Shown: positions 5,408 to 42,681 of the stretch, in pieces
Numbering within the stretch: the first letter of the stretch is position 1
Layout of the letters: every line of letters starts with the position of its first letter
Source of the DNA: Pseudomonadota bacterium
Lineage (GTDB): Bacteria > Myxococcota > JACRCW01 > JAFGSX01
Length of the DNA stretch: 64,000 nt
NCBI GenBank assembly: GCA_043821645.1
Contig: JBDRCO010000023.1
Coordinates: 160,001-224,000 of the forward strand
Reading direction: 5' to 3'
The notes under the pieces: model-generated
What the model was told of the DNA's origin: nothing
The model's database searches: none
What the model saw: only the letters and a program-made list of their open reading frames with translations
Position numbers and translations under genes: made by a program

Positions 5408-5551
5408 GATTGGACCTCGCCAGTCGAGAGGCGTCGCACCACCCTCAGGCGGTTCCGATTCGTGAAGGCTGATAACATCCTCTCGTGCACTGCATGTCCA
5501 CAGGCCCTGCACGGCATCCGCAGAGTTCTGGTCGGAGTCGCCTGCTCCCAC

Positions 5552-5923: not shown

Positions 5924-6063
5924 GCTGGCCCCGCCCCCCTCCCCTTTCCCCAACCGGGCGATGACGCCCCCGGAGCAAACCGCTAGACTGCGCCGCGCGA
6001 TCAGCCGGAAAGCGCGATCGCGATCACCGCACGCAGGGGCAGGTCCCCGACGAGGTCCAGGCC

Positions 6064-17385: not shown

Positions 17386-18557
17386 GAGTCCTCGCTTACC
17401 TGCACAAGACCTTCTTGGAGAACCTGCGCGAGTGGAAGGTGCTGTCCTTTGCCCTCGTATTCGCGCCGGCCTTCGTCTTCATGATGTACGGCTACTACAA
17501 CGCGGCGTCTTCATCCTACGCCCTGCTCGTGCTCGACGGGGACCGCTCCCGGGAGGCCCCGGGTCCTGGCGCTGAGGTCGAGGTCCTGCTCTCGGCCCTG
17601 CGCGAGGCGAAGCACGCGGACGGCGTGCCGCTGTTCGTCGTAAATGAGGTGCGGGATCTGGAGGCGGCGCGTGCACGCGTTCGCCAGCGCAGCGCGGATC
17701 TTCTGGTCGAGATCCCGGCCGGTTTTGCGGCGGCGGTGAGGGCTTTTCGCGACGGCCAGAGCTCCGAACCCGCCCACCTGGTTCACCACAGCGACGACAA
17801 AAACCTGCGCGGGTCCATGGCCATGGCGCTGTCCGACTACGTGCTCTACACCACCCTCACCGAGGTCACCCGGGCCAGACTCCCGCTCGCCGTGTCCGTG
17901 CAGCCCGTGGGAAGCGGACGCCCGCTGAGCGAGTTTGACCTGTACGTGCCGGCACTGCTGGTGCTGGCCATCATCATGATCCTGTTCACGGCAGCGACCT
18001 CTCTGATCCAGGAGGTGGATCGCGGCACCCTGATGCGACTGTCCCTGTCCCGGCTGAAGCTGTGGGAACTGCTGGCCGCGGTCTCCGCCAACCAGGTGCT
18101 GCTGGGGCTGGTGGCCCTGACCCTCGCCTACCTGGCCGCCCTGTCCTGTGGCTACCGCAGCGAGGGATCGCTGGTCGTCCTGCTCGTGGTCGGCGCCTTG
18201 ACCAGCCTGAGCGTGGTCGCGATCGCGGTGATCACCGCGGCCTTGCTGAGGTCCATGTTCGAACTGCTCACCGTCGGCACTTTTCCCTTCTTCATCCTCA
18301 TGTTCTTTTCCGAGTGCATGTTTCCCCTCCCCAAGCTCCCGGTGGTGCAGATCCTGGGGCACACCCTGTACGCCAACGACGTGCTGCCCACGACGCTGTG
18401 CGTTCGCGCCTTTCAGCAGGTGCTCAACTTCGGTGCCGGGATCCGCGACGTGGGATTCGAGCTGGTCGTCATCGGCCTGCTCACCACCCTGTACTTCGCC
18501 CTGGGTACCTGGCTCTTTTCCCGTCGTCACGGGCGCATGTCAGCCCGGCGGGCGTGA
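17382..18557 (+). CDS. ABC-2 exporter permease
   Basis: N-terminal TM, extracytoplasmic loop, further TMs; ATGA overlap with the ATPase. Confidence 0.88.
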   Translation: MRVLAYLHKTFLENLREWKVLSFALVFAPAFVFMMYGYYNAASSSYALLVLDGDRSREAPGPGAEVEVLLSALREAKHADGVPLFVVNEVRDLEAARARVRQRSADLLVEIPAGFAAAVRAFRDGQSSEPAHLVHHSDDKNLRGSMAMALSDYVLYTTLTEVTRARLPLAVSVQPVGSGRPLSEFDLYVPALLVLAIIMILFTAATSLIQEVDRGTLMRLSLSRLKLWELLAAVSANQVLLGLVALTLAYLAALSCGYRSEGSLVVLLVVGALTSLSVVAIAVITAALLRSMFELLTVGTFPFFILMFFSECMFPLPKLPVVQILGHTLYANDVLPTTLCVRAFQQVLNFGAGIRDVGFELVVIGLLTTLYFALGTWLFSRRHGRMSARRA

Positions 18558-18601
18558 GCTGAGGGGATGCAGACCGGTGTGACCTTCGACCGCTCGGCTT
18601 C

Positions 18602-19003
18602 TCAGCCCTCGGCCCAGGTCAAGGCCGTGGTCGGACAGAAGGCCGCACAGGTGGGATTGCCCTTGCACAGGTCGCACTTGAGCGCGACCTGGGTGTCTTG
18701 CCGGAAGTACATGGCGCCGAAGGGGCAGGCATACACGCAGGCCTGGCAGCCAAAGCAGCGGTCGTTGACCTCGAGGGCATGGGTGTCGGAGTTGCGGGTG
18801 ATGGCCTCGACCGGGCAGGCCTTGACACAGGCCGCGTCGTCGCATTGCAGGCAGGTCAGGGGCACGGGGACGGTGTCGACCCGCCGCACGTCGATGACGC
18901 GAGGACCAATGGGGCTGGGCGCGCCGGAATGGTAAAAGGCACAGGCCAGCTCGCAGTTGCGGCAGTGGGTGCACTCTGTGGGGCGAACGATGAGTCGCTT
19001 CAT
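18602..19003 (-). CDS. 4Fe-4S multicluster electron-transfer protein (DmsB/HydN/CooF-like)
   Basis: CTHCRNCELAC, CLQCDDAACVKACP, CFGCQACVYACP, KCDLCKGNPTCAAFCP; GAGGAGG RBS. Confidence 0.9.
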   Translation of the reverse strand: MKRLIVRPTECTHCRNCELACAFYHSGAPSPIGPRVIDVRRVDTVPVPLTCLQCDDAACVKACPVEAITRNSDTHALEVNDRCFGCQACVYACPFGAMYFRQDTQVALKCDLCKGNPTCAAFCPTTALTWAEG

Positions 19004-19008
19004 CGTGG

Positions 19009-19839
19009 TCACCTCCTCATCGTGCCGCTGGGCAGCGGCGGTGGCGTGCCACCCATGGCCTTGGGCGTGAAGCCCGGGTGGGTCTTGAGCACCACGTCGG
19101 CGAAGGTGCTGGCGGTGCGCTGACGCTTGCAGCTCGGGCACTCCTCGTAATAGCTGGCGTCGAGCCCGCTGCGCCGGACCAGCAGGTCTCTTTCGTCGGC
19201 CGTCATGAAGGGCGCGTGGCAGGTCTTGCAGGTGAGAAGCGCGAACTCGCGCTCCCAGATCCGACGAACCCCCTGTTTCTCCTCGAAGGGAATGCACGCT
19301 GTGGGGCAGATGCGCGCGCAGGCAAAGCAGCCCACGCAGGCCTCGGCCGCACCGCCAAAAGGTGTGGCGATGACCTTGTCGCTGCCGCGCTGGGCCGTGG
19401 TGATGGCGTGGGCACCCACGCGATCACAGGCACGCACACACAGGCCGCACAGGATGCAGTCGTCCGCATCCGTCCGCGGCGTGTAGCTGGTCCTGGCCAC
19501 GCCCGCGTCGCGGGCCATCTGCTGGATCAGGGGTGCGTCCGGGCACCGCGCGAGAAGCAGATCCAGAAGCTGGGCGCGCGTACGGCGCACGCGCTCGCTC
19601 TGGGTGGACACCTGCAAGCCCTCCTCGACGGGATAGAGGCACGAGGTGACCAGCTTGCTCCAGCCGTCCCAGCTCGGACGTGTGATCTCGACCACGCACA
19701 CGCGGCAGGCCCCGACGTCCTCGACCGCGGGGTGGTGGCACAAGGTCGGAATGGGAATGCCTGCGCGCGTGGCGGCATCAAGCAGGGTCTCGCCCTCGCG
19801 CGCCGTCAGCTTGCGGTCGTCAATGTGGAGCGTCACCAT
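19009..19839 (-). CDS. Short HydA/NuoG-N-terminal-like Fe-S subunit (2Fe-2S plus 2x4Fe-4S), no catalytic domain
   Basis: IPTLCHH..GACRVCVVE..TSC, CILCGLCVRAC, CVGCFACARICP, C-terminal CxxC...CxxC; only 276 aa. Confidence 0.88.
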   Translation of the reverse strand: MVTLHIDDRKLTAREGETLLDAATRAGIPIPTLCHHPAVEDVGACRVCVVEITRPSWDGWSKLVTSCLYPVEEGLQVSTQSERVRRTRAQLLDLLLARCPDAPLIQQMARDAGVARTSYTPRTDADDCILCGLCVRACDRVGAHAITTAQRGSDKVIATPFGGAAEACVGCFACARICPTACIPFEEKQGVRRIWEREFALLTCKTCHAPFMTADERDLLVRRSGLDASYYEECPSCKRQRTASTFADVVLKTHPGFTPKAMGGTPPPLPSGTMRR

Positions 19840-21752
19840 CAGATCACCTTGATCGCGTCAAAGGTGCAGGCGCGAATGCACACGCCGCAGTGGGTACAGG
19901 TGTCCTGGTCAATCAGGTGTAGCTGCTGCTTCTCGCCGGCAATGGCGTCGACGGGGCACAGGCGCTTGCACACCAGGCAGCCTGTGCAGCTGTCGAGCAC
20001 CTCGAAGCGGCTGAGCGCGGTGCACACGCCGGCGCGGCAGCGCTTGTGCTCGATGTGTTCGATGTACTCGTCGCGAAAGTACTTCAGCGTCGACATCACC
20101 GGGTTCATGGCCGAGGTGCCCAGTGCACACAGGCTGGCCTCGAGCACGAAGGCGATGTTCTCGATGCTGTCGAGGTCCTCGAGACGACCCTCGCCCCGGC
20201 AGATGCGGTCGAGGATGCCGAGGAGCTGGGTCAATCCCTCTCGGCACGGCACGCATTTGCCGCAGCTCTCCTCGGTGAGGAAGCGCGTGAAGTAGCGGGC
20301 GACGTCCACCATGCAGGTGAAGTCGTCCATGACGATCATGCCGCCCGAGCCCATCATGGCCCCGGCCTTGGTCAAGGAATCAAAGTCGACGTGCAGGTCG
20401 AGGCAGCTCTCGGGCAAGCACCCGCCCGATGGGCCCCCGGTCTGTACGGCCTTGAAGGGGCGCTCGTTCAGGATACCGCCGCCCACATCGTAGATGATGT
20501 GGCGCAGGGTGACGCCCATGGGCACCTCGATGAGGCCCGTGTGCCGCACCGTCCCGGACAGCGAGAAGGCCTTGGTGCCTGGAGATTTCTTGGGGCCGAT
20601 GGACGCGAAGGCCTCGGCTCCGTGCTCGAGGATCCAGGGCACGCAGGTCCAGGTCTCGACGTTGTTGAGCACCGTGGGTTCGTCAAACAGCCCGCGCTCG
20701 ACGCTGCGCACGTACTTGGCGCGCGGTTCACCGACATTGCCGGCGACGCTCTGCATCAGGGCACTGGACTCGCCGCAGACGAAGGCGCCGCCGCCTCGGC
20801 TGATCGTGAGATCGAAACAAAAGCCCGTGCCCAGGATGTCCTCGCCGAGAAGACCGTGGGTGCGCGCGTCGACGATGGCCCTGCCCAGGCGCTCCACGGC
20901 CAGGGGGTACTCCTCCCGCACGTAGATCCAGCCGTGCTGCGAACCCAGGGCGTAGGCGCCGAGGATCATCCCCTCGACCACCGCGTGCGGATCGCCCTCC
21001 ATGATCACGCGGTCCATGAAGGCCCCTGGATCACCCTCGTCACCGTTGCACAGCACGTGGCGCGGCACCTTGCCCTCACCCTCGGCCTCGCGCTTCTCGG
21101 CGGCGGCGATGCAGCTCTTCCACTTGCGGCCCGTGGCAAATCCAGCTCCGCCGCGGCCGCGCAGGCCAGAGCGGTCGACCACCGCGAGCACGTCCGCCGG
21201 CGTCATCGAGGTGAGCGCCTGCACCAGCGCTCGGTACGCGCCGTGGGCGATGGCGTCCTCGATGCTCTCGGGGTCGATGACCCCGCAGTGACGCAGGGTC
21301 AGGCGGTGCTGGTGCTTGTAAAAGGGGATCTCGTCGAAGCGCGCCACGGGCGCACCGGGCTTGGTCTTCTTGCCCGGCTTGGGTTTTGCGAGGGCCACGG
21401 TGGGGCGGTAGGCCAGCTTCTCGTCATAGCCATCGCCCACCACGCTGGCGTCGAGAATGGCGTCCAGCATGGTCGGCTTGACCTTGGGGTACAGCAGGTG
21501 GCCTGGCTCGATGATGACCAGAGGGCCGCGCTCACACAGGCCGTGACAGCCCGTGAGGGTGGTGCGCAGCGTGGTCTGGACGTCGAGCTTGCGCGCGCGG
21601 ATCTTGTCCTGCAGCGCCTGGTAGAGCCGCGCCGAACCGGCCGCCAGGCAGCCGGGGCCGCCGCACACGAGGACGTGCTTCCGGGTCTTGCCCTGCCGCG
21701 CCACGACGCTGTCGCGCCAGGTATCCAGGTCCTTTTGCGTCTGCACCCGCAT
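19839..21752 (-). CDS. HydB/NuoF-like FMN/NAD-binding subunit
   Basis: N-terminal 2Fe-2S (CGGPGC..GCHGLC), GLRGRGGAGF, NGDEGDPGAFMDR, GGPSGGC, ESCGKCVPCREG, two C-terminal 4Fe-4S motifs. Confidence 0.93.
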   Translation of the reverse strand: MRVQTQKDLDTWRDSVVARQGKTRKHVLVCGGPGCLAAGSARLYQALQDKIRARKLDVQTTLRTTLTGCHGLCERGPLVIIEPGHLLYPKVKPTMLDAILDASVVGDGYDEKLAYRPTVALAKPKPGKKTKPGAPVARFDEIPFYKHQHRLTLRHCGVIDPESIEDAIAHGAYRALVQALTSMTPADVLAVVDRSGLRGRGGAGFATGRKWKSCIAAAEKREAEGEGKVPRHVLCNGDEGDPGAFMDRVIMEGDPHAVVEGMILGAYALGSQHGWIYVREEYPLAVERLGRAIVDARTHGLLGEDILGTGFCFDLTISRGGGAFVCGESSALMQSVAGNVGEPRAKYVRSVERGLFDEPTVLNNVETWTCVPWILEHGAEAFASIGPKKSPGTKAFSLSGTVRHTGLIEVPMGVTLRHIIYDVGGGILNERPFKAVQTGGPSGGCLPESCLDLHVDFDSLTKAGAMMGSGGMIVMDDFTCMVDVARYFTRFLTEESCGKCVPCREGLTQLLGILDRICRGEGRLEDLDSIENIAFVLEASLCALGTSAMNPVMSTLKYFRDEYIEHIEHKRCRAGVCTALSRFEVLDSCTGCLVCKRLCPVDAIAGEKQQLHLIDQDTCTHCGVCIRACTFDAIKVI

Positions 21753-21754
21753 GA

Positions 21755-22213
21755 TCAGTTCCTCGCGCCTGGCAGGAGAGCAGGAGCGCTCGCCGGGGTG
21801 ACCGCACCATGCACCTCGTCATCGATCATGACGACGGGCGCCAGGGCACACGCACCCACGCAGTTGACCCCCTCGAGGGTGTGCTTCATGTCCGCGGTGG
21901 TCTCGCCCCGGGCCACGCCCAGAGCCTTCTCGAGCTCCTCGATGACCAGACCGCTGCCCCGCACGTGGCAGGCCGTCCCCGTGCACACCCGCACGCGATG
22001 CTCGCCCCGCGGGGTGAGGCTGAAGGCCTTGTAGAAGGTCGCGATGGCGTAGACCTTGGAGGCTGGCACCTCGAGGTAGTCGGCAGTCGCGCGCAGAGCA
22101 GCCTCGGGCAAATAGCGAAAGTGCTTCTGGAAGTCGTGCAGCAGGCCAACCATGGAGGCGGACTGGCGCGGGTGCTGCTGCAGGATGTTCTCGATGTCCG
22201 CATGGTCGCACAT
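21755..22213 (-). CDS. HydC/NuoE-like 2Fe-2S subunit
   Basis: ATFY, VCTGTACHVRG, NCVGACALAPV. Confidence 0.93.
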   Translation of the reverse strand: MCDHADIENILQQHPRQSASMVGLLHDFQKHFRYLPEAALRATADYLEVPASKVYAIATFYKAFSLTPRGEHRVRVCTGTACHVRGSGLVIEELEKALGVARGETTADMKHTLEGVNCVGACALAPVVMIDDEVHGAVTPASAPALLPGARN

Positions 22214-22228
22214 GGGTTCTACCCTCGG

Positions 22229-22771
22229 TCAGGCTTTTGGCTGCACGGCGTCGTGTCCGCGTTGCAGGGCGCGCAGGTTGATGTCGACGATCTTGGGTTT
22301 GTGGCCAAAGGTCTCCTTGATGAGGTGGTGCACGGTCTCCAGCTTGACCGCATGGGTGAGGCCCAGATAGGCGCCCAGAGCCACCATGTTGGCGGCCTTG
22401 CCCGTGCCCTCCTCCATGGCAATGTCATTGCAGGCGACGTGGTGCACCTGGATATCGGTGCGGTCGGTGTCGACGTCGATGAGCGAGGTGTTGATGATGA
22501 GCACGCCGCCAGGCTTGACCCGCGGTCCGAACTTGTCGAGCGAGGGCCGGTTCATCACCACCGCGGCCGTGGGATTCTGGAACACCGGCGAACCGATGGG
22601 CTGGTCCGAGATGACGACGTTGCAGTAGGCGGTGCCCCCGCGCATCTCGGGACCGTAGGAGGGCAACCACACCACCTCGCGACCCTCGTCGAGACCAGCG
22701 TGGGCCAGCAGCTTGCCCGTGAGCAGGATGCCCTGGCCGCCGAAGCCAGCGATGGTGACCTCACGATGCAT
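22229..22771 (-). CDS. 2-oxoacid:ferredoxin oxidoreductase gamma subunit
   Basis: AGFGGQG, PSYGPEMRGGTA, NMVALGA. Confidence 0.92.
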   Translation of the reverse strand: MHREVTIAGFGGQGILLTGKLLAHAGLDEGREVVWLPSYGPEMRGGTAYCNVVISDQPIGSPVFQNPTAAVVMNRPSLDKFGPRVKPGGVLIINTSLIDVDTDRTDIQVHHVACNDIAMEEGTGKAANMVALGAYLGLTHAVKLETVHHLIKETFGHKPKIVDINLRALQRGHDAVQPKA

Positions 22772-23528
22772 GCGACACCTCGCGGGCTCCATCCTCGGGT
22801 GTCTTGAACAGGCCGAGCGGATAGGCCGGCACCATGTTCTTGGCAAGCCAGGTGGCCGACTCGGGCGGCGTCAGGCCCCAGTTGGTGGGACAGGTCGACA
22901 GGCACTCGACGAGGGAGAAGCAACGGCCCTCGATCTGGTACTCGAAGGCACGGCGGATGGCGGCCTTGGCGGCCACGCTGTGCATCTCGTCGTGAACCGA
23001 CACCCGCTCCAGGTAGGCCGGCGTCTGCAGGGTCGACAGCAGCTCGACGATGCGGATGGGCCAGCCCGCCTGGTTCACGTCGCGGCCCGCCGGACAGGTG
23101 GTGGTGACCTGACCGGGCAAGGTCGTCGGCGCCATCTGGCCCCCGGTCATGCCGTAGATCGCGTTGTTCACGAAGATGGTGGTGAACTTCTCGCCACGAT
23201 TGGCCGAGTGGACGGTCTCGGCCATGCCGATCGACGCCAGATCGCCATCCCCCTGGTAGCTGAACACGACAAGATCCGGACGAGCGCGCTTGATGCCCGT
23301 GGCCACCGCCGGAGCGCGGCCATGTGCAGCCTCGTGCATGTCACAGTTGAAGTAGTTGTAGGCCAGCACCGAGCAGCCCACGGGCGCCACGCCAACGGTT
23401 CGCTCGCGCACCCCCAGCTCGTCGAGGACCTCGCCCACCATGCGGTGCAGGATGCCGTGGGTACATCCCGGACAGTAGTGGGTCTTGACGTCGACCAGTC
23501 CAGGCGTGTTCTTGAAGACCAGTTCCAT
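22761..23528 (-). CDS. 2-oxoacid:ferredoxin oxidoreductase beta (TPP-binding) subunit
   Basis: HYCPGCTHG, PVGCS, YQGDGDL..NNAIYGMTGGQ, CPTNW. Confidence 0.92.
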   Translation of the reverse strand: MELVFKNTPGLVDVKTHYCPGCTHGILHRMVGEVLDELGVRERTVGVAPVGCSVLAYNYFNCDMHEAAHGRAPAVATGIKRARPDLVVFSYQGDGDLASIGMAETVHSANRGEKFTTIFVNNAIYGMTGGQMAPTTLPGQVTTTCPAGRDVNQAGWPIRIVELLSTLQTPAYLERVSVHDEMHSVAAKAAIRRAFEYQIEGRCFSLVECLSTCPTNWGLTPPESATWLAKNMVPAYPLGLFKTPEDGAREVSHAS

Positions 23529-23536
23529 GATCGACC

Positions 23537-24637
23537 TCACACGGTTGAGGAGAAGGGATCTCCCAGAACCGTGACCTTCTTGCCGTCAAGCACCTGTCTG
23601 GCCACGTGCAGGACCTCCTCGGGCGAGCACACCATGCCGCCGGCGCGACCGAAGAACGAGATGGGCTGGCGGTCCGACGTCGACAGGCGCACGTCCTCGA
23701 TCATCTGTCCCATGCTCAGCTCGACCACCAGGATGGCCCTGGCCTTCTCAGCACGCGCACGCAGTTCTGCCTCGGCGAAGGGCCACAGGGTGATGGGACG
23801 AAACACGGCCACCTTGCGGCCTTCACGGTTGAGTTCGTCGGCGGTGGTCTTGGAGATGCGCGCCACCGTGCCGTAGGCCACGATGAGCAGGTCCAGGTCG
23901 CCCTCGGCACCGTAGTGTTCGAAGCGCGACTCCTGGCTGGTGATGCGCTCGTACTTGCGACGCAGCATGATGTTGTGCTGCTCGAGTTCCAGCGGATCCA
24001 GGAACAGGGAATTGACGATGTTGGGTGCGCGACCCTTGGCTCCCGTCGTGGCCCAGCTCTTGACCGGCAGGTCGGAGGCACCACGAGGGTTGAACTGCAC
24101 CGGCTCCATCATCTGGCCGATGAGGCCATCGCCCATGACCATCACGGGATTGCGGTAGCGGTCTGCGATGTCAAAGGCATCCATCATCAGATCCGCGGCT
24201 TCCTGCACCGTCGACGGCGCCAGAACGACCATCCGGTAGTCGCCGTGGCCGCCTCCTTTGGTGGCCTGCAGGTAGTCACCCTGCCCGGGCAGGATGCCGC
24301 CCAGGCCAGGCCCTGCCCGCACGATGTTGATGATCACCGCGGGCAGTTCCGAGCCAGCCATGTAGGAGATGCCCTCGGTCATCAGGCTCAGGCCCGGACT
24401 CGAGGTGGAGGTGAACACGCGCGCACCAGCGCCGGCGGCGCCATAAAGCATGTTGACCGAGGCCACCTCGCTCTCGGCCTGAACGAACACACCCCCCACC
24501 TCGGGCAGGCGTTTTGACAGGTACTCGGGCACCTCGGTCTGCGGGGTGATGGGATAGCCGAAGAAGCACAGCGCTCCCGCCTGGATGGCAGCCTCGCCCA
24601 GTGCCTCGCAACCCTTCATCAGCTTCTTGTCGCTCAT
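23537..24637 (-). CDS. vorB: 2-oxoacid:ferredoxin oxidoreductase alpha subunit (VOR/2-ketoisovalerate-type)
   Basis: GYPITPQTE, QAESE, TSSPGLSL, GPGLGGI, KGGGHGDY. Confidence 0.88.
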   Translation of the reverse strand: MSDKKLMKGCEALGEAAIQAGALCFFGYPITPQTEVPEYLSKRLPEVGGVFVQAESEVASVNMLYGAAGAGARVFTSTSSPGLSLMTEGISYMAGSELPAVIINIVRAGPGLGGILPGQGDYLQATKGGGHGDYRMVVLAPSTVQEAADLMMDAFDIADRYRNPVMVMGDGLIGQMMEPVQFNPRGASDLPVKSWATTGAKGRAPNIVNSLFLDPLELEQHNIMLRRKYERITSQESRFEHYGAEGDLDLLIVAYGTVARISKTTADELNREGRKVAVFRPITLWPFAEAELRARAEKARAILVVELSMGQMIEDVRLSTSDRQPISFFGRAGGMVCSPEEVLHVARQVLDGKKVTVLGDPFSSTV

Positions 24638-24638
24638 G

Positions 24639-24872
24639 TCAGTACTCGAACAGCTTGTACTGGTTACCGTTCAGGCCGACCTGGATCGCACAGTCCGGGC
24701 AGGTGATGGCGCACAACCCGCAGCCTATGCAGCGCGACGGGTCGTTCATCAAGGCCGGGAAGTAGCCCATGACGTTGATCTCCCGCGCCATGCCCAGGAT
24801 GCGCTGCGGACAGGCCACGACACAGCGCTCGCAGCCCTTGCACAACTTGGTATCGATCAGCACCCGCGGCAT
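24639..24872 (-). CDS. 2x[4Fe-4S] ferredoxin / oxidoreductase delta subunit
   Basis: CKGCERCVVACP and CIGCGLCAITCPD; AAAGGAG RBS. Confidence 0.92.
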   Translation of the reverse strand: MPRVLIDTKLCKGCERCVVACPQRILGMAREINVMGYFPALMNDPSRCIGCGLCAITCPDCAIQVGLNGNQYKLFEY

Positions 24873-24890
24873 GGCGTGCTCCTTTGCATG

Positions 24891-25661
24891 TCACTTCACC
24901 CCGGCCGGCAAGGCCGGCGTCGGTGGTCGGCCAATAGGGCCACGCCTCTGGTTCGGCTCCCAGGGCGACGTCATGAAGCGTTCGAGCGCGAGCACCGGAC
25001 AGTCGAAGGCGTTCTCGCCCACGGTCTCGAGCACTCCGCGCTCGACGCTGGCGAAGCGAAGCGGCACGCCCACCTGCTCGCCGAAGGCGCGGGCAAACGC
25101 GATGCCACCCTGAACAACCTCGACGCTGGTCTCGTGAATCAGGTGCGCGTTGGCGACCAGACCCGTGACCTTGAGACGACTCGCGGCCTCGAGGTCGTTG
25201 TACATGCGCTGGCAGCCCTCCGCGGAGTCGGTGAAGGGACGGCGCTGATTGACGACCTGGAGCACATCGGCCTTTTGCAGCCTCAACGTCGCCGAATAGG
25301 TCCCCAGCACGCGCGCACCCAGGTCATCACCGCCCACATCGAGGACCACGTGACCATCGGCGCTGGCGATGGCGCCCGCCACTTCGCGCAGCAGGATGGG
25401 CAGATCCGCAAAGGCATACTCGTTGGCCGGCGCCACCACCTCGATCCCCTGGGCCTCGACGTGGCTGCGCGCCTCCCGGCTGCGGAAGAACAGGTTGATG
25501 ATGTCCAGGTCAACCAGTTGAACGCGTGCACCCGTGGTTCTGAGGGCCAGCGCGTAGTTGATCGCGATCTCGGTCTTGCCGGATCCGAAGTTTCCAATGA
25601 AGACGGTGACCGGCTGGGGCGGCGGGAGGTTCCAGTGGTTGTGGCCTGGTGCCATGGTCAT
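24891..25661 (-). CDS. P-loop (MinD/CobQ-like) nucleotide-binding protein at the head of the oxidoreductase operon
   Basis: GNFGSGKTEIAIN, VDLDIINLFFRSRE, ADLP, DVGGDDLGA. Confidence 0.82.
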   Translation of the reverse strand: MTMAPGHNHWNLPPPQPVTVFIGNFGSGKTEIAINYALALRTTGARVQLVDLDIINLFFRSREARSHVEAQGIEVVAPANEYAFADLPILLREVAGAIASADGHVVLDVGGDDLGARVLGTYSATLRLQKADVLQVVNQRRPFTDSAEGCQRMYNDLEAASRLKVTGLVANAHLIHETSVEVVQGGIAFARAFGEQVGVPLRFASVERGVLETVGENAFDCPVLALERFMTSPWEPNQRRGPIGRPPTPALPAGVK

Positions 25662-25835
25662 GGTTCCCGATCCGCTATGTGCTGCCGCTCCGTACACGCA
25701 CAGCTCGGCGCTGCGCCGGCCTCCCCCCTTGCGCGCTGCTTGCGGATCTGCAGGCGCCAGGTCTCTGCTGGTGCGCCCGCTTCAGCCGCTTCATCCCGCC
25801 CGGATTCTCATCCAATTCATGCCAAGAGCGTCGTC

Positions 25836-25864
25836 ACCATGCGATCTGGACCGTCAAAAGTCAA
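25836..25864 (-). promoter_or_regulatory. Possible sigma70-type promoter for the redox operon
   Basis: TTGACT-N17-CATGGT on the minus strand. Confidence 0.35.
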
Positions 25865-25957
25865 TCGCTGCGCCGGTGGGAACGCACCGGCACTGGAGGC
25901 CATGTGACGACGAACCACACCGAGTGTGAAGGCTCTTGTGGCGGGAGAAGCTCCAGA

Positions 25958-28051
25958 TCAGGCCATGTTCACGATGCCGGTCTCGGCGAGCACATAGAGC
26001 ACGGCCAGGGCGCGCTGCTGTGCATCATGGGCCACGGCGCCACAGCTCAGGATCACCTGAGGCAGACTTCGCTCCCCGTCAATGGCCCGCACCACAGCGA
26101 GTTCGTCCGGACGGAGCCGAAGCGCATCGATGTGGGACGCCTTGGCATCGCGCAAATTGACAAGTCGCTGGCCACGCGGGACCAGGTTGGCCTTGAGCTC
26201 CTCGAGGGTGAAGGTACGGCGAATCGCGCGGGTCAGGAGGCCTGGCAAGGACGCGATGCGGAAGTGCACGGTGACCGGAGGCGGCGCTTCTGGAAAAACC
26301 CGCACCCGGGCATGCGGCCAGGCGAAGCACGGATAGAGACGGCTACGCAGCAAGGCGCCGAGGTCACGGCGCTGCGCCTCGACGTCGACATCCGGCAGCC
26401 TGAGCAGGGCCACGTCGATGGGTACCAGGCGCGTCAGGGTCTCGTTCAGAGCCAGGCGCGCTCGCCTCGCCCGCTGGTCCTCGATGCGGAGCATCAGGGC
26501 GGGCAACCCATCCTTATGGCGTGAACTCGCCACGTAGAGAAGACGCCCCTCCTTCAGGTACAGCTCGCGCCATTGATCCGGCGTCGCGTTCTCGATGCGC
26601 AGCAGCCCACTGAGGCGACGCAACGAAGCCTCGTAGAGCACCCGGGTCAGGGAGACCTCGGCAAGCGAGATCTCGAGGCGTGGTGGTCCCTGCGGCGGCG
26701 GCCAGGCAGCCACGGTATCCCACAGGCAGGCCTCGCCAAAGCGTCGGACCGGGATGTGCGGTGCCCCGACCAACCCGAGCTGCCGCACGCTCCCGTCATC
26801 CTTGGCGAGCCTGTCGACGAGCGCCTCCAGTTTCACCTCCCCGAGAAGCTGATCGCCAGCACCCAGAAGCTGGACCAGCGGCTCAGGCGGCGCACGCTCG
26901 TCGATGTCAAAATCGAAATCTTCACCAGTCCCCAGCCCAGGATCGGTCTCGATCTGCGAGCCCATGGGCTCTATCCAGCTCGCCGGTGGCTCCGGATCAA
27001 ACGCGGTGTTGCCCCCCATCTGCAGGGCCAGGATGCGCGAGGTGTTGTCGGTGAAATCGCCCCAGTCGTCATCGCCGACCTGGCCGCGGGGCAGTGGTGG
27101 CGGGAGCACGAGGGGCAGGGCCTCGAACGGAAAGAGTGAACTCATCACGTCGCCAATGCGCCTGCGGTTCCAGCGCAAGCGGCGCGCGAAGAGAAAATCG
27201 CTCAGGGCTTCTTCCAGCTCCTGGGCGCTTTGAAAGCGCTTGTCGCGGTCCTTGACCAGCGCCTTTTGCACGATGCGATCGATATCCGGGGCGATCCGCG
27301 GGTTGAAGTTCGAGGGCGGGGGCGCCTCCTCGCCTCGAACCTTGACCAGCACCTCGACGTCGGTGCGGCCAGTGAAGAGACGTTGGCCGGCCAGGGTCTC
27401 CCACAGACTGACCCCGGCGGCGAAGACATCCGCCCGCTGATCCACTTCGAGGTGCTGCAAGATCTCTGGCGCCAGGTAGCCGTACTTGCCGCGCAGCTCG
27501 TGACCGGCCTCGTCGCCCGCGCCGTGCGACACCCCGAAATCCCCGAGCTTCACTTCACCACTGAAGGCCACATAGATATTGGCCGGCGTGACATCGCGAT
27601 GCACCAGCCCCAGGGGTTTGCCGTCGGGACCCGGTGCCGCGTGGGCGAAGCCCAGACCCTTGAGCATCTCGACGAAGCAATGCAGCGTGAAATCTACGGG
27701 CAGGTCGAAGCTGCGGGCCTGGGCGCGCTTGAGCACCTGCAACAGGTCCGCGCCGTGCACGTACTCCAGCACGATGAAGGGCTGGCGCCCCTCCTGGCCA
27801 AGCGACAGGGTCTGCACGACATTGGCATGCTGCAAACCACTCGCGGTCTTGGCCTCGGTGATGAACATCTCGACGAAGCGGGGCTGCGCAGCCAGCGGGC
27901 CGAGCAATCGCTTGATCACCGCTATCTTCTCAAAGCCCTGCGCTCCGTGGGTCCTGGCCAGGTACACCTCTGCCATGCCACCGGTTCCGAGATGCCTGAG
28001 CAACTCGTAGTCGCCGAACCAGTGAGGAACAAAGATGCTCGTCGGCTGCAA
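25958..28051 (-). CDS. Hanks-type Ser/Thr kinase with C-terminal DUF4388/PATAN-like region
   Basis: GTGGMAEVY, VIK, HRDVTPAN, DFG, APE; C-terminal SGLLRI..RELYLKEGRL. Start placed at TTG 28051 after GGAGGAG. Confidence 0.88.
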   Translation of the reverse strand: MQPTSIFVPHWFGDYELLRHLGTGGMAEVYLARTHGAQGFEKIAVIKRLLGPLAAQPRFVEMFITEAKTASGLQHANVVQTLSLGQEGRQPFIVLEYVHGADLLQVLKRAQARSFDLPVDFTLHCFVEMLKGLGFAHAAPGPDGKPLGLVHRDVTPANIYVAFSGEVKLGDFGVSHGAGDEAGHELRGKYGYLAPEILQHLEVDQRADVFAAGVSLWETLAGQRLFTGRTDVEVLVKVRGEEAPPPSNFNPRIAPDIDRIVQKALVKDRDKRFQSAQELEEALSDFLFARRLRWNRRRIGDVMSSLFPFEALPLVLPPPLPRGQVGDDDWGDFTDNTSRILALQMGGNTAFDPEPPASWIEPMGSQIETDPGLGTGEDFDFDIDERAPPEPLVQLLGAGDQLLGEVKLEALVDRLAKDDGSVRQLGLVGAPHIPVRRFGEACLWDTVAAWPPPQGPPRLEISLAEVSLTRVLYEASLRRLSGLLRIENATPDQWRELYLKEGRLLYVASSRHKDGLPALMLRIEDQRARRARLALNETLTRLVPIDVALLRLPDVDVEAQRRDLGALLRSRLYPCFAWPHARVRVFPEAPPPVTVHFRIASLPGLLTRAIRRTFTLEELKANLVPRGQRLVNLRDAKASHIDALRLRPDELAVVRAIDGERSLPQVILSCGAVAHDAQQRALAVLYVLAETGIVNMA

Positions 28052-28078
28052 AGGACTCCTCCGGCGCGTGACCGGCGC

Positions 28079-28107
28079 ATGGTAGGCAGAGACAGCCCCC
28101 GTTTCAA
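28079..28107 (-). promoter_or_regulatory. Sigma70-type promoter for the kinase
   Basis: TTGAAA-N17-TACCAT just upstream of the RBS and TTG. Confidence 0.5.
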
Positions 28108-28260
28108 GCAGACACGGCCCCATGCCTCGCGGTCACATTCGACGTCTGCGGTCAGGTCGAAGCTGGAGCCGGTGAACGTGCCGCCCGACCACGCAACCGC
28201 ACGCAGCACGGCCCACACCCTACGACTCGAGCTCCGTGATTGGCAGGGACATCGACGCAC

Positions 28261-30156
28261 TCAACGCAGGTTGTTGCGGACCGAGCCTGTTCGACGGCAG
28301 CGCCATCCTAAAAGCCCCAGCAGGAAAAGAATCCCAGGCCGGGAGACACTCGTTCTGCACTGGCAGCCTGCGGTGCTGGGAGTAGGCGGATCGCACGGCT
28401 CCCCGACGCAGGCCAGTGAGCGGTCGTCCGCGTCTCCACCCGAGACTGCTGCATCGACACCAGTGTTCGCGACGCTGTCGTTCGTGGCCAAGTCCGAGCC
28501 TGCCCAAGCGTCACCCGTGTTGCTGGCATCGACGGGAGCAACGGTCCCGACGTCAGCCAGGCTGGTTCCCGCATCCGGAGTGCCTGCATCAGCGGCCATG
28601 CACTGACCTTGCGCGCAGGTCTGCTCCGCACCACATGCACCACACACGCCGCCACAGCCGTCCGGTCCACAGACGCGCCCCGCACAATCGGGCACACAGC
28701 CAGCACGTGGCTTTCCCCATAGCATGGTGCGTGCGTAGCCCAGCCCCAGGCTGGCGCCCATGCAGAACTCGCCCACCGCGGTCGGGCCCTCCAGAAACCA
28801 CATGTACGGATCCTGCAGATCCTCGCCGAGCACAAACCAGCGCAGCACGTCCCAGGCGTAGAAGTAGCAGGGGCCCATATGCAGGCCCCCCGCCACCAGG
28901 GCCCGGGTGTCGTAGCCCCGGTCCGCCATCAGGGGCTCGACCATGAGAATCTGGCGCTTGCCGCGGTTGGTCATCTCGACCAGGTCGGCGTACTTGTCGT
29001 TGCCCGGGCTGCGGCCCATGTCCATCCAGTCGGCATAGCCCCAGTTCTCCTGGATGAAGGTGGTGGAGCCAACGCGGGCGCTGTCGCTGCCCGCGCAGAG
29101 GTCGGCGATCGCCTGGTATGGGTAGAACACGTAGAGGTAGCGGCGCAGGGTGCCCTGACCGGGGTCGGGCGGATACGCACTGAGGCCGGCGCCGCGCATC
29201 CTCCAGTAGATGCCACCGATGTAGAAGGCCAGCAGTTCCCGCTCGCGGTCACTCAGCGCCGGGTGCAGCAGCTCTGGGCGCACCCGCCCCTGGGCCTCGA
29301 CGGCGGCGCGGTCGTCCGCGGCCTGGGCCAGCCCCTCGCTGTACAGGGTGTTCAGCCCGCTGCGCACCGCCGTGAGCTCGTCGACCAGGGTCCCGATGGT
29401 GGTGGCCAGACTCTGTCGCGCCACACTGTCAAAGCAGCTCGTGTTTGCCTGCAGCAGCCCGAGCACACTGGCATAGGCGTCGAGGCGACTCTGGAGCTGG
29501 GCCTGCAGCGGGTCATGGCGGATCTTGGCGATCACTCTTCGAGCAGTCGCGACAAAATCGTCCGGGAGCAGGCCAGACGGGTATTCGACATGGGTCAGGG
29601 CTTCACCAGCGTAACTGATGAGGCCCTCGAAGCTGGACAGGTACTCGCCGGTGACCGCTCCCGGAGTCTGCCTGAAGACAAAGGTCTCGGGGAACTCCAC
29701 CTCGAGACAGGTCTCGTCGACGTGCTCGAGGGCAGCGCCTATTCGAGTGTTCACGCCCTGACAGGCCAGGGACGGGTTCGGCACCAGCAAGTTCGGGACG
29801 CTGAAGCGAGCATGCTCGACGCAGGACTGCGGGACCCGATCCCAGGCCGGGTCCTCCCCTGGCCCAGACGCCGCGGCGCGCTCCAGGGCGTCGACGACAT
29901 CCGTGAAGAAGTACAGATCCGCCAGGTCGACACTGCGAGCCTCCAGTTGCCCGGGGGGCAAGCCAGGGAGGTCGGTGCCGAGCTCGGCGAGTTTCTCCTC
30001 GACGTAGGCCGGATTCGCCGTGTCTTGAGGATCGAGATCAAAGGGCCAGGGATTCGGCTGGCCGCGCGAGAGAGCCGGCACGAGCAGGCAGATCACAAAG
30101 GGGAGCACGCCGAAGCAGCGAGGCTGGGACCGGGGAGCGGCGCGGTACTGCGACAT
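28261..30156 (-). CDS. Exported protein with Cys-rich module and MYXO-CTERM sorting signal
   Basis: Signal-like N-terminus; CVPDCAGRVCGPDGCGGVCGAC module; D/A-rich linker; C-terminal GCQC-hydrophobic-RCRR; GGGAG RBS. Confidence 0.82.
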   Translation of the reverse strand: MSQYRAAPRSQPRCFGVLPFVICLLVPALSRGQPNPWPFDLDPQDTANPAYVEEKLAELGTDLPGLPPGQLEARSVDLADLYFFTDVVDALERAAASGPGEDPAWDRVPQSCVEHARFSVPNLLVPNPSLACQGVNTRIGAALEHVDETCLEVEFPETFVFRQTPGAVTGEYLSSFEGLISYAGEALTHVEYPSGLLPDDFVATARRVIAKIRHDPLQAQLQSRLDAYASVLGLLQANTSCFDSVARQSLATTIGTLVDELTAVRSGLNTLYSEGLAQAADDRAAVEAQGRVRPELLHPALSDRERELLAFYIGGIYWRMRGAGLSAYPPDPGQGTLRRYLYVFYPYQAIADLCAGSDSARVGSTTFIQENWGYADWMDMGRSPGNDKYADLVEMTNRGKRQILMVEPLMADRGYDTRALVAGGLHMGPCYFYAWDVLRWFVLGEDLQDPYMWFLEGPTAVGEFCMGASLGLGYARTMLWGKPRAGCVPDCAGRVCGPDGCGGVCGACGAEQTCAQGQCMAADAGTPDAGTSLADVGTVAPVDASNTGDAWAGSDLATNDSVANTGVDAAVSGGDADDRSLACVGEPCDPPTPSTAGCQCRTSVSRPGILFLLGLLGWRCRRTGSVRNNLR

Positions 30157-30409
30157 GATGCTCCCTGGCTTACCGAAGGCCCGGCTTCCGTGCTGCTTGC
30201 GGAGCGGCATGGGACTGCCTGTGTTGGCTGTCGTTCCACTCATGGCAGCTCAAGTATGAGCATGTAGGTTGAGGTCACACATCGGTCGATCGGACGATGA
30301 GCGCAGGCGCAGGTCGATCGAATGCAGGATGACTTTTTCACCCGCTACAGGCCGGAATGACACCAGGTACTGGTCATGGTGGGAGAAAACGGTCGTGGAC
30401 GCGTTCGGA

Positions 30410-33400
30410 TCAGGAATCCACGCGCACCTTGAGCGGTGAGGCCCAGGCCTTGTGCTCGGCGGTGTAGTACAGGTAGGTCGAGGATGCGGGCGCGGTGTAG
30501 GTGCCAGGCACGTTGGCCACCAGGTCGATGGCAACCTCCTTCTTGGCGCGCGGCGGCAGGGCCCTGTAGTACACGATGACCTCGCGCGGCCGGGTCTCGT
30601 AGAAGTCGACCAGCTTCTTGTCGACCAGCTCTTTGAGCTGCCAGGTCTGGAAGGTCAGGCCGCCGGGGATGCCAATGCGGATGAGGGTCATGGGCAGGCC
30701 CTCGTCGCTGGTGCTCTCGAGGTTCGCCGTCACCCTCACGGTCTCGCCCATCTTGACCTCGCTCTTGGCTGCGGTGGTGGTCAGTTTGAGCGGTACCTCC
30801 GGGCTGTTGGCGGGATCGTTGCTCCGGTAGTCCACGCTCACGGTGTAGGGCAGCTCTGCCGCCGAGGTCAGCACCAGCTCCACGGTGTTGGCGCCGGCGG
30901 TCAGGTGCTTGCCGAGATCCTCGAACACGATGGGCTCGTTGCGGCCGGCATCGAAGCTCAGGGTCTGCACGGTGTCACCGTTGACCTTGATGGCGATCTC
31001 GCCCCCAGCCTTCATGCGCTTGGCAGCGCGGTCGTAGGCCGTGATGGCCTTGAGCGCCAGGATGGTGGCCTGGGTCGAGCCGAAACCGCCGTAGCCTGAA
31101 CTCTGGGTGAGCAGCCACTGCATCGCGCGCTGCAAGGCCACGGGCTGCTTGCCGTCCTTGGCCAGGGCCAGAATGGCCAGCGAGGTGGTCTCCACGTCGA
31201 GACTCTGGCCACCGGAGCGGGTGACCGAGTGGGTGGTGCCGGCGAAGCGGCCATCCTTCTGCTGCAGCTTCTCGAGCCTGTCGACCAGGGTTTTCGCCGC
31301 GCTGCCCCGGGTGTTGAGCTGGGCGTTGGCGGCGAGCGCCACGATGTAAGGATCGCTCGAGGTCTTGGCGCGGTTGGTGACCGTGGTGAGTTCGAGGTCG
31401 AGGTCGCTCATCCCGGCCTCGGTCAGGGCGTACACGATGTAAGCATCGGTGACCTCGGTGCTGGCGCCGCCAAAGCTGTCCAGGGCGCGGCTGTTGCGCT
31501 GGAACCCACCCTTGCCGTCGCGGCGACTGTACAACCACTTCTTGGTGCGCTCGATCATGGCGCTGTCGACGCCGCCAAACACGGCCTTCATGTCGACAAA
31601 CTCCATCAGGCCGTAGGCGGTCAGGGCCTCGTGCCCCGGGTCGCCACCGAACCACTCGTAGCCCTTCTGCGGACTCTCATAACCGGCGATCTTTCCGTAG
31701 CCCGAGGTCAGCAGCCGGCTCGAGCGCTCGACGATGGCGGGCTCGGCCGCGTCGTGTTCCTGCAAGTAGCGCATGACCATGATGTTGGGGTAGTTGCTCG
31801 ACGAGGCCTGCTCGAAGCAGCCAGAAGGCTCCTGCAGGATGCTCGCCACGCCGCTGAGCATCTGTGCCGCGGGCGACGGGTAGAACGAGACCACACCCGC
31901 CACACTGCCCTCGACCGCACCCTTGAGGTCGAAGCTGTGGGAGGCCTTCTTGGCCAGGTTGCCGCTCTGCGAAAGGTTGCGCGGGAAACCAAGTGGCACC
32001 ACCTTGAGCTGGCGCGTGAACTCGTCCTTGAGCCCCTGGGCCATGGCACCGATGCGAACCTCGGTCTGGCCCATCCGTCCCACTACCTCGAGGGGGAACA
32101 GCAGGGTGCGGCCCGTCGACGCGCCCAGGTCGACGCTGCCCGGGACCACATTCTCGAGCAGCTTGATTTGCTCGCCGAAGGTCGTGGTCAGGGCCACGCC
32201 CAGGGGCAAGGCGGTCTCGTTCTTCAGGGTCAAAGGCAGGCTGATGAGGTCGCCAGCCGACACCTCGAGGGGCAGCTTGACGTCCATGAAGAAGGGCAGC
32301 TTGGACGACAGTACAGTCTCGTTGCGGCCGGCCTGGCCCGCATTCGAGATACCCTCGGCGGTGATGCGAAACGATGTCACGGCGTCGGACAGGTAGAAGG
32401 TCACGGAGCCCTTGCCGTTAACGTCCGTCGACACTGAGGGATTCCAGTACACGGTCTCGCGGAAGTCGGTGCGCGGACCGTCCCAGGGTGCGCTGTAGTC
32501 CGGCACCGGGAACACGCGAACCTTGGCCCACTCCCACGCGGGTTGCGCCTTGGCCTGGTCGCCGGCGCCGGCCCAGTCCCCGTCGGCTGCGACGACGGGT
32601 TGGGGCTCGGCCGCGGCCGGGGCTGCGGCGATCTCGTTGAGGGCCATGGCGCGCCCCATGGCTCGCTTGTCCTCGGCCCTATCCATCTTCTCGGCCTTCT
32701 TGCCTGCGAGCACCCTGGCGGGAGCCCTCGCCTCGACCTCGGGCTCTGCCATGGCCAGCAAGCCGTCCTTGGCCGGCGCGGGACCCGCAGGCGCGGGCTT
32801 CTTCATCGCCGGTGCCGGGGCAGCCATCGGCATGTCCGCGGGCGGAGGTGGTGCGGCTTGCTGAGCCATCATGGGCCTCGGCCGCTTGTCAGGTCTGGCC
32901 GCCCGCGCCGCCTGCTTTCCCTCTCGCATGCCTCCCTTGCGTTGGGCCATCGCGGCGAGAGGCCTGGCGTCATCGTCGTCGGCCGCGAGCATGGCCCCGC
33001 GATCCATCATGTCGCCAATGGCGCCGCCAGCGCCGGTGGCCACCGAGGTCCGGGGTGGAGGCGGCGACCACTGCAGCACCTTCTGCCACTCGAAGCGGCG
33101 CCAGCCGCGAGTACCGAGCAGCATGTCCAGCGCACCCACCGCCTTGGCTTTTTCTTGATCAAAGTAGAAGTTGGGCTCCTCGATCTTGCCCGGCAGCTCC
33201 TTCTCCAGGAACAGGTGGGTCAGCATGTGCGCGGTCTTGTCATCGGCGAAGCTGAGCACCGTGTCATCGACGACGGAGAGCGCGAGATCGGCGGCCACGG
33301 GTTTGCCGGCCAGGTCCGTGGTCTCGACGTTGAGGGTGACCTGCCCGCGGGGGGTGTAGCTGCCGCGGTCGGGCTTGACGGTGATCTTCAGATCCTTGTG

Positions 33401-42626: not shown

Positions 42627-42644
42627 GAGGTGGCCTCGTGTTTC

Positions 42645-42673: not shown

Positions 42674-42681
42674 TCCTCGCC

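Follow-up and report, generated by a model that had tools for sequence, protein, structure and literature searches.

Which enzyme acts as the catalytic partner of the Bfu-type module encoded at positions 18602-25661 (minus strand) is the question raised by the 64,000-nucleotide stretch of contig JBDRCO010000023.1 analysed here (the window, meaning that whole stretch), which belongs to an uncultured Myxococcota-like genome. Nine open reading frames (ORFs) lie there with gaps of at most 18 bp or with overlaps, in the order P-loop NTPase, 2-oxoacid:ferredoxin oxidoreductase (OFOR) delta, alpha, beta and gamma, BfuC, BfuB, BfuA and a polyferredoxin. The ORF listing and the Pfam/NCBIfam scans bear out the tight same-strand packing described in a first-pass annotation of this DNA; the intergenic spacings, which depend on the gene starts picked in the analysis, are 18, 1, −4, −11, 15, 2, −1 and 5 bp in transcription order. 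It is probable that the nine genes encode a single multi-subunit enzyme of the Bfu family, with a "plug and wire" construction like that of WorABCSL and with the OFOR as its catalytic head. The first-pass annotation had suggested the OFOR as the catalytic partner, and this suggestion gains comparative support from synteny, from co-inheritance and from the OFOR being the sole enzyme nearby; the complex and its bifurcation are putative, and the principle is not new, since an OFOR-containing Por-Bfu was put forward in 2022.

The subunits of the core allow the type of the module to be judged. In PMC9304861, the Bfu family is described as having a BfuB with a 51-kDa domain for flavin mononucleotide (FMN) and NADH, an SLBB domain, a NuoF Fe-S region and ferredoxin-type 4Fe-4S clusters, and a BfuC with a NuoE-type 2Fe-2S cluster. 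Clusters B2-B5 are also required, and these (an N-terminal 2Fe-2S, B2 with His and Cys ligands, and two C-terminal 4Fe-4S) are missing in non-bifurcating homologs. The BfuB of the window (NuoF/HydB-like, 637 aa, 19839-21752, on the minus strand like all nine genes) carries an FMN/NAD site and ligands for B1-B5. Its Pfam matches are PF01512 (Complex1_51K, 130.7 bits), PF10589 (NADH_4Fe-4S, 102.6 bits) and Fer4 (39 bits, C-terminal), with SLBB at 21.7 bits, under the Pfam cutoff of 27, and with an N-terminal 2Fe-2S thioredoxin-like domain in addition. WorB (9mqx_B, 675 bits), NiFe-HydB (7t2r_B, 665 bits) and T. kivui HydB (8a6t_B, 662 bits) match it end to end, and the non-bifurcating NuoF and FdsB align with its central part only, at no more than 354 bits. 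The motifs found are C30/C35/C69/C73, GDPGAFMDR at residue 240, TKAF at 393, GGPSGG at 439, the H566..C572....C577 site and two C-terminal four-Cys motifs (C589-C599 and C619-C629). Positions C480, C518, H566, C572 and C577 align with the B2 ligands C438, C476, H525, C531 and C536 of the NiFe-Bfu, the ligand roles being taken from PMC9304861. Every motif that had been claimed for this protein as a bifurcating trait is present, and the full-length match to bifurcating structures adds to them. BfuC (NuoE/HydC-like, 21755-22213), which would hold the [2Fe-2S] cluster C1, matches PF01257 at 168.7 bits as well as HoxE/NuoE models of NCBIfam. By sequence criteria, BfuB, BfuC and the BfuA described below fit the Bfu family. 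As to residue 518, where the window has Cys at the position of the B2 ligand C476, about two-thirds of BfuBs have Thr there (PMC9304861). WorB, which has Zn at B2, also shows Thr at the equivalent position of the alignment.

The catalytic candidate is encoded by the four genes that precede this core. The OFOR superfamily is marked by a GDG-x(25-30)-NN motif in beta, YPITP in alpha, the Cys ligands of a [4Fe-4S] cluster in beta, two [4Fe-4S] clusters in delta and a gamma domain, and the whole of this set is found here. The alpha subunit (366 aa, 23537-24637) matches POR_N (165.8 bits) and PFOR_II and has YPITP at residue 28. The beta subunit (22761-23540; 259 aa from a GTG, with an ATG at 23528), predicted by TPP_enzyme_C to bind thiamine pyrophosphate (TPP), has a GDGD-x26-NN motif and the residues C19, C22, C52 and C213, invariant in seven sequences. 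Delta (77 aa, 24639-24872) matches Fer4 families, its two CxxCxxCxxxCP motifs providing for 2x[4Fe-4S] with eight cluster Cys that are likewise invariant in seven sequences, and gamma (180 aa, 22229-22771) matches Pfam POR at 141 bits, the NF006323 alignment beginning at residue 26 of the ORF.

The choice of substrate is less well defined by these sequences. Only alpha reaches an NCBIfam cutoff, that of the "VorB" subfamily NF005507 (524.8 bits, cutoff 399); beta, gamma and delta are under every equivalog cutoff, the top match of delta being OorD at 54 bits, under its cutoff. With the PorA, PorB, PorC and PorD equivalogs the scores are 36-107 bits, where 120-625 would be needed, so that the enzyme falls outside the pyruvate type as these models define it. 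The solved structures nearest to alpha are 1yd7 (the P. furiosus 2-ketoacid:ferredoxin oxidoreductase) and the 2-oxoglutarate enzymes 8ys5 and 6n2n. Because "VorB" is a family label only and the nearest solved structures are mixed, no one substrate is singled out among branched-chain 2-oxoacids, 2-oxoglutarate and pyruvate, and the anaerobic amino-acid metabolism that the first-pass annotation had read from the locus is possible but not supported as stated. The OorDABC/KorAB 2-oxoglutarate enzymes and the P. furiosus enzyme provide the nearest solved alpha and beta subunits and share YPITP and GDG..NN with the window OFOR, whose delta-alpha-beta-gamma arrangement presumably corresponds to the D-A-B-C order of the Oor operon. 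The window OFOR differs from them in staying under the equivalog cutoffs, the "VorB" subfamily match of alpha excepted, and in being linked to Bfu, WorS-like and P-loop genes.

How such an OFOR could be wired to the core is suggested by the last two genes of the cluster. BfuA (19009-19839, 276 aa) is of the short Type-2 form, matching Fer2_4 (70.4 bits) and Fer4 only (Fer4_21, 35.8 bits), with Cys for the [2Fe-2S] cluster A1 and two [4Fe-4S] clusters (4 + 8 residues), a Pro-rich tail and, by Pfam, no catalytic domain. The His-ligated cluster region PF10588 and the HxxxCxxCxxxxxC motif were looked for in BfuA and neither is present, so that A1, A2 and A4 are kept and A3 and A5 are absent, which is the Wor-like Type-2 pattern. 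Its best sequence match is WorA (9mqx_A, 247 aa) with 173 bits over residues 5-247, in which C204, C207, C234 and C237 align with the zinc-finger Cys of WorA. The AlphaFold2 (AF2) model, built from a 14-row alignment, has 9mqx_A as its top fold match (E 1.2e-17, TM 0.40/0.44) and predicts a helix at residues 235-253 directly after the zinc finger, with values of 87, 79 and 69 by block for the predicted local distance difference test (pLDDT) and a disordered Pro-rich tail beyond the helix. In WorABCSL, the zinc finger and C-terminal helix of WorA recruit WorS, whose cluster S4 is placed 10.7 Å from A4, and the BfuA subunits of Por-Bfu and Mbh-Bfu keep the zinc finger with no helix and with no WorS homolog in those enzymes, as described in the available parts of PMC12318220.

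The ninth gene (18602-19003, 133 aa), called a 4Fe-4S protein in the first-pass annotation, is no generic ferredoxin but a polyferredoxin of the WorS/AorA type. Its 16 Cys, all invariant among nine homologs, provide for 4x[4Fe-4S], and its best PDB matches, nearly full-length, are AorA (8c0z_C, E 5.7e-31) and WorS (9mqx_E, E 1.6e-29 over residues 2-130). In a 14-sequence alignment, a tail of at least about 12 residues past the zinc finger is seen in the BfuAs of the window, of six loci with the same gene order (described below) and of four Wor-type loci, and the three Por-type BfuAs, from loci without a WorS homolog, reach no further than the second CxxC of that finger. A WorS homolog is found in every tail-bearing locus open to this check, namely the window, the six syntenic loci and the Wor-type loci L013 and L073; the contigs of the other two Wor-type loci, L009 and L023, are cut upstream and stand outside it. 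Within this alignment, the BfuA tail and WorS go together, reproducing the published distinction, and the window is on the Wor side. The WorA-like BfuA and the WorS-like gene, both missed by the first-pass annotation, give a concrete model of the wiring by homology and separate the locus from the published Por-Bfu.

From the gene content, the ligand motifs, the homology to Wor and the synteny we infer a physical complex, a direction of electron flow, bifurcation and a substrate class as follows. The TPP enzyme, composed of alpha, beta, gamma and delta, would convert a 2-oxoacid to acyl-CoA and CO2 by oxidative decarboxylation, and the electrons would leave by way of the cluster in beta and the two in delta. 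The four-cluster WorS-like protein, docked at the zinc-finger/C-terminal-helix end of the short BfuA, would be the next carrier and serve as the wire between OFOR and BfuA. Along a path based on homology, electrons would pass from A4 to A2 to A1 and on to the BfuBC core (FMN, B1-B5 and C1), where NAD+ and ferredoxin (Fd) would be reduced together. On the model of Wor-Bfu, the net reaction would be 2 2-oxoacid + 2 CoA + NAD+ + 2 Fd(ox) <-> 2 acyl-CoA + 2 CO2 + NADH + 2 Fd(red), and its reverse would be a reductive carboxylation driven by NADH and reduced ferredoxin.

A further hint of contact between the OFOR and the polyferredoxin is a fusion in PadI, the beta subunit of the NADH-dependent phenylglyoxylate dehydrogenase, whose NCBIfam model has a polyferredoxin domain of the same type ahead of the TPP domain. 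The window polyferredoxin aligns with positions 5-136 of this model and the window beta with 221-371. A search for longer or fused polyferredoxin homologs gave one match among 56 candidates, a 234-aa Fer4 protein, and the fusion is therefore taken from the NCBIfam profile only. A structure prediction for OFOR alpha, beta and delta together with the WorS-like protein, made from 7-9-row alignments and without controls, scored 0.24 against a mark of 0.32, which speaks neither for nor against binding.

The Pad system also bears on the possibility that the nine genes encode one complex that does not bifurcate, i.e., an NAD+-linked 2-oxoacid dehydrogenase similar to PadEFGHI or AorABC in which both electrons go to the flavin. 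The Pad family is curated in NCBIfam as an NADH-dependent OFOR whose beta subunit has the same polyferredoxin domain, the ninth protein has its top PDB match in AorA, which belongs to the NAD-linked AorABC (PMC12318220), and the direct reduction of NAD+ by a 2-oxoacid is exergonic. However, the window BfuB keeps the N-terminal 2Fe-2S, the B2 His/Cys site and the two C-terminal 4Fe-4S clusters that non-bifurcating relatives lack, and the nearest relative to have been characterised, Wor-Bfu, does not reduce either acceptor by itself though both reactions are exergonic (PMC9304861). We consider a non-bifurcating complex quite unlikely. PadEFGHI (NF045762-NF045766) is similar to the window in having an OFOR hard-wired to NAD(H) and in the polyferredoxin domain type of the beta model, but the window proteins stay far below the Pad cutoffs: the best scores are 66.7, 67.5, 54.5 and 25 bits where 700, 700, 300 and 150 are required, and another is 35.5 against 700. 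In addition, the NAD module of the window is a NuoE/F/G-type Bfu rather than a Pad-type flavoprotein, and its polyferredoxin is a separate protein.

The next question is whether the nine genes belong together. One genome per GTDB species was scanned with six peptides from the window BfuB, which gave 73 loci whose neighbours were typed by tblastn with the nine window proteins and by Pfam/NCBIfam scans; the top BfuB match in this collection of genome contigs is 58%. The nine genes are found in the same order in 6/73 loci (L001, L002, L003, L006, L008 and L010), synteny being one of the checks named in the first-pass annotation, and because the order recurs in these related loci the arrangement is not a chance one. 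One of the six is labelled Ignavibacteria and the others "uncultured bacterium", so that the unit occurs across distant lineages: the Myxococcota-like metagenome-assembled genome (MAG) of the window, an Ignavibacteria MAG and several unclassified MAGs. The packing is as tight as in the window in L006, L008 and L010, and in L001-L003 the gaps are wider. The order is otherwise intact in L003, where ORFs are inserted within the cluster (L003:3906-5190 and 6391-6759), one of them a 23S rRNA-intervening-sequence protein (PF05635, 90 bits). The flanking genes are unrelated among the six loci, so that the cluster acts as a unit complete in itself.

Among these flanks, a gene trio lies divergently upstream of the cluster in L006 (2248-4743) and L008 (1817-4775), and one of its genes encodes a 255-aa protein with the citrate-synthase C-terminal domain only, possibly citryl-CoA-lyase-like. 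This gene may hint at a metabolism of the tricarboxylic acid cycle type in these two loci. An assignment of 2-oxoglutarate as the substrate from flanking genes was considered and dropped, as the flanks differ and the citrate-synthase-domain gene is found in L006 and L008 only.

Neither the window nor any of the six syntenic loci has a catalytic enzyme other than the OFOR near these genes. Pfam scans of the 32 other ORFs of the window reveal no hydrogenase, formate dehydrogenase (FDH) or aldehyde oxidoreductase (AOR), and tblastn of the window with four reference domains taken from related loci (AOR, H-cluster, Mo-pterin, NiFe) gives no match at E<=1e-8, in agreement with the first-pass annotation, which had seen no H-cluster, Mo/W, NiFe, FDH or AOR gene nearby. 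AOR, H-cluster/FeFe, Mo-pterin and NiFe genes are also absent from the DNA around each of the six loci. These results speak against the idea that the Bfu and WorS unit serves an AOR/WorL, a hydrogenase or an FDH encoded elsewhere and that the adjacent OFOR is incidental. That idea draws on the usual pairing of WorS homologs with AOR-type enzymes and on our view of the window genome, which extends over 64 kb only. However, the Wor loci L013 and L073 have adjacent WorS and AOR genes directly upstream of bfuCBA, the DNA examined for the seven nine-gene loci is free of AOR, FeFe, Mo-pterin and NiFe genes, and the WorS-like gene is the last of the OFOR-Bfu cluster in 7/7 loci. A distant partner thus appears very improbable.

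Synteny also bears on the possibility of two separate enzymes sharing one operon and a pathway only, with a soluble OFOR that reduces free ferredoxin and a BfuABC-polyferredoxin unit that re-oxidises ferredoxin with NAD+ or uses an unlinked third partner. OFORs usually work with free ferredoxin, the BfuB has a ferredoxin site of its own at B3/B4, Schut et al. raise the same question in their discussion of Codh (PMC9304861), and the larger gaps of L001-L003, with even inserted ORFs inside the cluster, would fit such an organisation. Against it, the Bfu core and the short BfuA have no third-substrate site of their own, and every Type-2 enzyme characterised so far has a catalytic module joined to it (PMC9304861, PMC12318220). 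Moreover, the WorS-type protein and the BfuA helix form a docking device in the solved complexes (PMC12318220) for which the OFOR is the sole enzyme available, and the nine-gene order is kept across distant genomes with unrelated flanks. We therefore regard two separate enzymes as unlikely.

The phylogeny of the HydB-like subunit, another check named in the first-pass annotation, was obtained as a tree of 70 BfuB rows (quick IQ-TREE, with the Shimodaira-Hasegawa-like approximate likelihood-ratio test, SH-aLRT), from which seven loci with a BfuB ORF of less than 450 aa were dropped. One clade, with support 96, holds the window, the six nine-gene loci and the three database sequences nearest to the window BfuB (70-74% identity). 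The sister of this clade is the Wor-Bfu clade (97), followed by the Por-type loci, all within a 20-row clade (99). Separate trees of the OFOR, BfuCBA (both from concatenated subunits), P-loop and polyferredoxin proteins each support the groups (L006, L008) and (L001, L002, L003) and, with seven taxa, conflict at unsupported nodes only. The module trees are consistent with co-inheritance of the OFOR, Bfu, P-loop and polyferredoxin genes, for which they are weak evidence.

Several observations weigh against the proposal of one bifurcating OFOR-Bfu enzyme. Synteny is evidence of co-inheritance and not of a physical complex, and the 73 loci are a biased sample rather than a survey. In the BfuB tree, L005, a long branch with no OFOR, is nested in the nine-gene clade, and because its partner set differs, membership of this clade cannot fix the partner. 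The genes of this locus (L005:8488-16151) encode a fused BfuC-BfuB (796 aa), a fusion of BfuA with MvhD/FlpD (702 aa), a Fer2_4 + Pyr_redox_2 flavoprotein (750 aa) and a DAO-family FAD oxidoreductase (388 aa). With regard to the docking device, the AF2 model of BfuA is moderate (mean pLDDT 74, predicted TM-score (pTM) 0.50, ferredoxin domain below 50), and in L001 the BfuA zinc finger is degenerate, part of its Cys set being lost. The window polyferredoxin is without the C-terminal tail of 12-27 residues found in the six orthologs and in two WorS; it stops, at a TGA, 10 residues past the last Cys of the fourth cluster motif. Translation beyond this TGA gives no resemblance to the ortholog tails. 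The C-terminal helix of WorS lets the units chain into a nanowire (PMC12318220), and because the tail is absent here a WorS-style filament is doubtful and a single bridging subunit more plausible. Finally, with potentials of about −500 mV for the 2-oxoacid and physiological values of −280 mV for NAD and −500 mV for Fd (PMC9304861, Table 1), bifurcation is not thermodynamically required, because the 2-oxoacid could reduce ferredoxin or NAD+ directly.

The OFOR-headed enzyme proposed here can be compared with two relatives. It shares with WorABCSL (the Wor-Bfu of Acetomicrobium mobile, 9mqx; PMC12318220) the top matches of BfuB and BfuA, a WorS homolog in the operon, a BfuA with four Cys at the zinc-finger positions, a predicted C-terminal helix and no His-ligated cluster (A3), and a BfuB clade sister to the Wor-Bfu loci. 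In contrast to WorABCSL, the catalytic module is a four-subunit TPP oxidoreductase instead of the tungstopterin WorL, the WorS-like gene is downstream of bfuA rather than upstream, next to the catalytic gene, its product has no C-terminal tail, and a gene for a P-loop NTPase is added. Since no AOR homolog is found in the window or the six syntenic loci, the locus is not a Wor-Bfu and is only built like one. Wor-type loci make up 4/73 of the sample, with the AOR gene seen in L009, L013 and L073 and inferred only for L023, whose contig is cut.

The second relative is the Por-Bfu predicted by Schut et al. in 2022, with an OFOR as the "third substrate" module (PMC9304861). The likeness lies in the OFOR genes directly upstream of bfuC-B-A, in the short Type-2 BfuA and in the logic of a 2-oxoacid as third substrate. 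In our sample, 3/73 loci (L004, L018 and L025) carry, immediately before bfuCBA, an OFOR of Por type (gamma-delta-alpha-beta), which scores 487 bits on PorA_Arch in L004 and L025, and they fall in the same larger BfuB clade as the window. The Por-type order is gamma-(delta)-alpha-beta, whereas the window has delta-alpha-beta-gamma with an alpha of the "VorB" subfamily that is only 23-26% identical to the Por-type alpha. No BfuA helix and no WorS are reported for Por-Bfu in the available parts of PMC12318220, which is confirmed in 3/3 Por-type loci, but the window has both, as well as the P-loop gene.

This P-loop gene (24891-25661; 256 aa from an ATG, the ORF being open to a GTG at 25697) is the first of the cluster. 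Its product is CbiA/MinD-like, with PF01656 (CbiA) at 25.8 bits, barely over the cutoff of 25.4, a Walker A motif GNFGSGKT and PDB matches to FleN/MinD only (E about 0.002), and it is grouped by the Atlas with widespread uncharacterised CbiA/MinD/Mrp-like clusters. Orthologs with 38-45% identity occupy the first position in 6/6 syntenic loci. Considering the family type and the conserved position, the protein is most likely an assembly or maturation factor and not a catalytic subunit.

On the sequence level, the locus departs from Por-Bfu in the lineage and gene order of its OFOR, in the predicted helix of its BfuA and in having a WorS-type subunit and a conserved P-loop gene, and it is read as a putative second, Wor-like class of OFOR-Bfu. 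We propose, more tentatively, that an independently assembled second class is recognised here for the first time, in which a Kor/"VorB" OFOR is combined with a WorS-type wire, docked on a zinc-finger/helix BfuA, and with a P-loop assembly factor; this stronger claim is possible rather than probable. No description of the nine-gene architecture was found in the literature searched, with the reservation that the 12 "Por" entries (clades 35, 44 and 45) of PMC9304861 might include it. OFOR-Bfu is not described in the available parts of the PFOR review PMC13768988 or of PMC13147460, and the literature found to name Por-Bfu reports no purification of an OFOR-Bfu.

The other loci of the sample have partners of different types: a FeFe-hydrogenase BfuA in 23/73, a Mo-pterin partner in 10/73, an Nfn-like partner in 3/73, a NiFe partner in 2/73 (L066 also having a fused gamma-alpha OFOR 5 kb away) and other polyferredoxin or flavoprotein types in 3/73, with 6/73 unassigned or cut. 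A glutamate-synthase-domain neighbour, checked by Pfam in four cases, is present in 13/73 loci (L011, L012, L030-L033, L038, L039, L043, L044, L047, L062 and L067). Their layout, e.g. L031:9001-13160, consists of bfuC-B, a BfuA of about 225 aa and then a protein of about 527 aa with a weak PF01645 match (48-53 bits), often with a sigma-54 activator upstream. The BfuBs of 11 of the 13 form one clade with support 100, and a partner of this kind is missing from those listed in the available parts of PMC9304861.

Regarding the surroundings in the window, the upstream neighbour, 260 bp from the cluster, is a gene for a Ser/Thr protein kinase with a C-terminal DUF4388 domain on the same strand (25958-28123, minus), and on the downstream side an ABC-2 permease gene converges on the cluster, with its end 44 bp away. 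A promoter/terminator scan of 18300-26100 gave no promoter-like site and five terminator-like sites, all intragenic and in a number within the shuffle expectation of 3.1 +/- 1.9. The whole window was also scanned for tRNA genes and, at gathering thresholds, against Rfam, with no match. The GC content is 0.63-0.69 in the window and 0.65-0.68 in the cluster, and that of third codon positions (GC3) is 0.81-0.89 in the nine ORFs, similar to the remainder of the window. An artefact of spurious high-GC ORFs is rejected, as all nine have strong family matches, orthologs and GC3 of at least 0.81, and so is a recent horizontal acquisition, judged by composition, in view of the window-like GC content of the cluster. 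The rpoB/rpoC genes (49580-58002, minus) lie within the window. The nearest named relatives of RpoB are Deltaproteobacteria, Myxococcales and Myxococcaceae MAGs with 73-78% identity, in keeping with the myxobacterium-like genome of the first-pass annotation, and the top match overall has 83% identity. Other genes on the minus strand encode a fused aspartokinase-ACT-homoserine dehydrogenase (2939-6076, 1045 aa) and a bacterial alpha-2-macroglobulin (30410-34834, 1474 aa), and the large ORFs with no Pfam match include 28261-30243, 41673-43019 and 43776-46840.

OFORs are gateways into and out of anaerobic carbon metabolism, and their redox carriers decide whether a step conserves energy and whether it can be reversed to fix CO2. 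An OFOR hard-wired to a bifurcating module would split very low-potential electrons between the NAD+ and ferredoxin pools and, in the reverse direction, NADH would help to drive reductive carboxylation; if the proposal is true, these organisms would have a reversible route between acyl-CoA + CO2 and the 2-oxoacid driven by NADH and ferredoxin. The locus suggests that the docking device of the WorA helix and WorS, known from one solved tungsten enzyme, has been reused for an unrelated TPP enzyme, in which case the "plug-and-wire" adaptor of Wor would be a general docking standard that couples unrelated low-potential oxidoreductases to NAD+/ferredoxin bifurcation. With the window and the six syntenic loci, the nine genes to use in expression and structural studies are defined. 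For the uncultured Myxococcota-like genome itself, the locus adds a redox module of a strictly anaerobic type.

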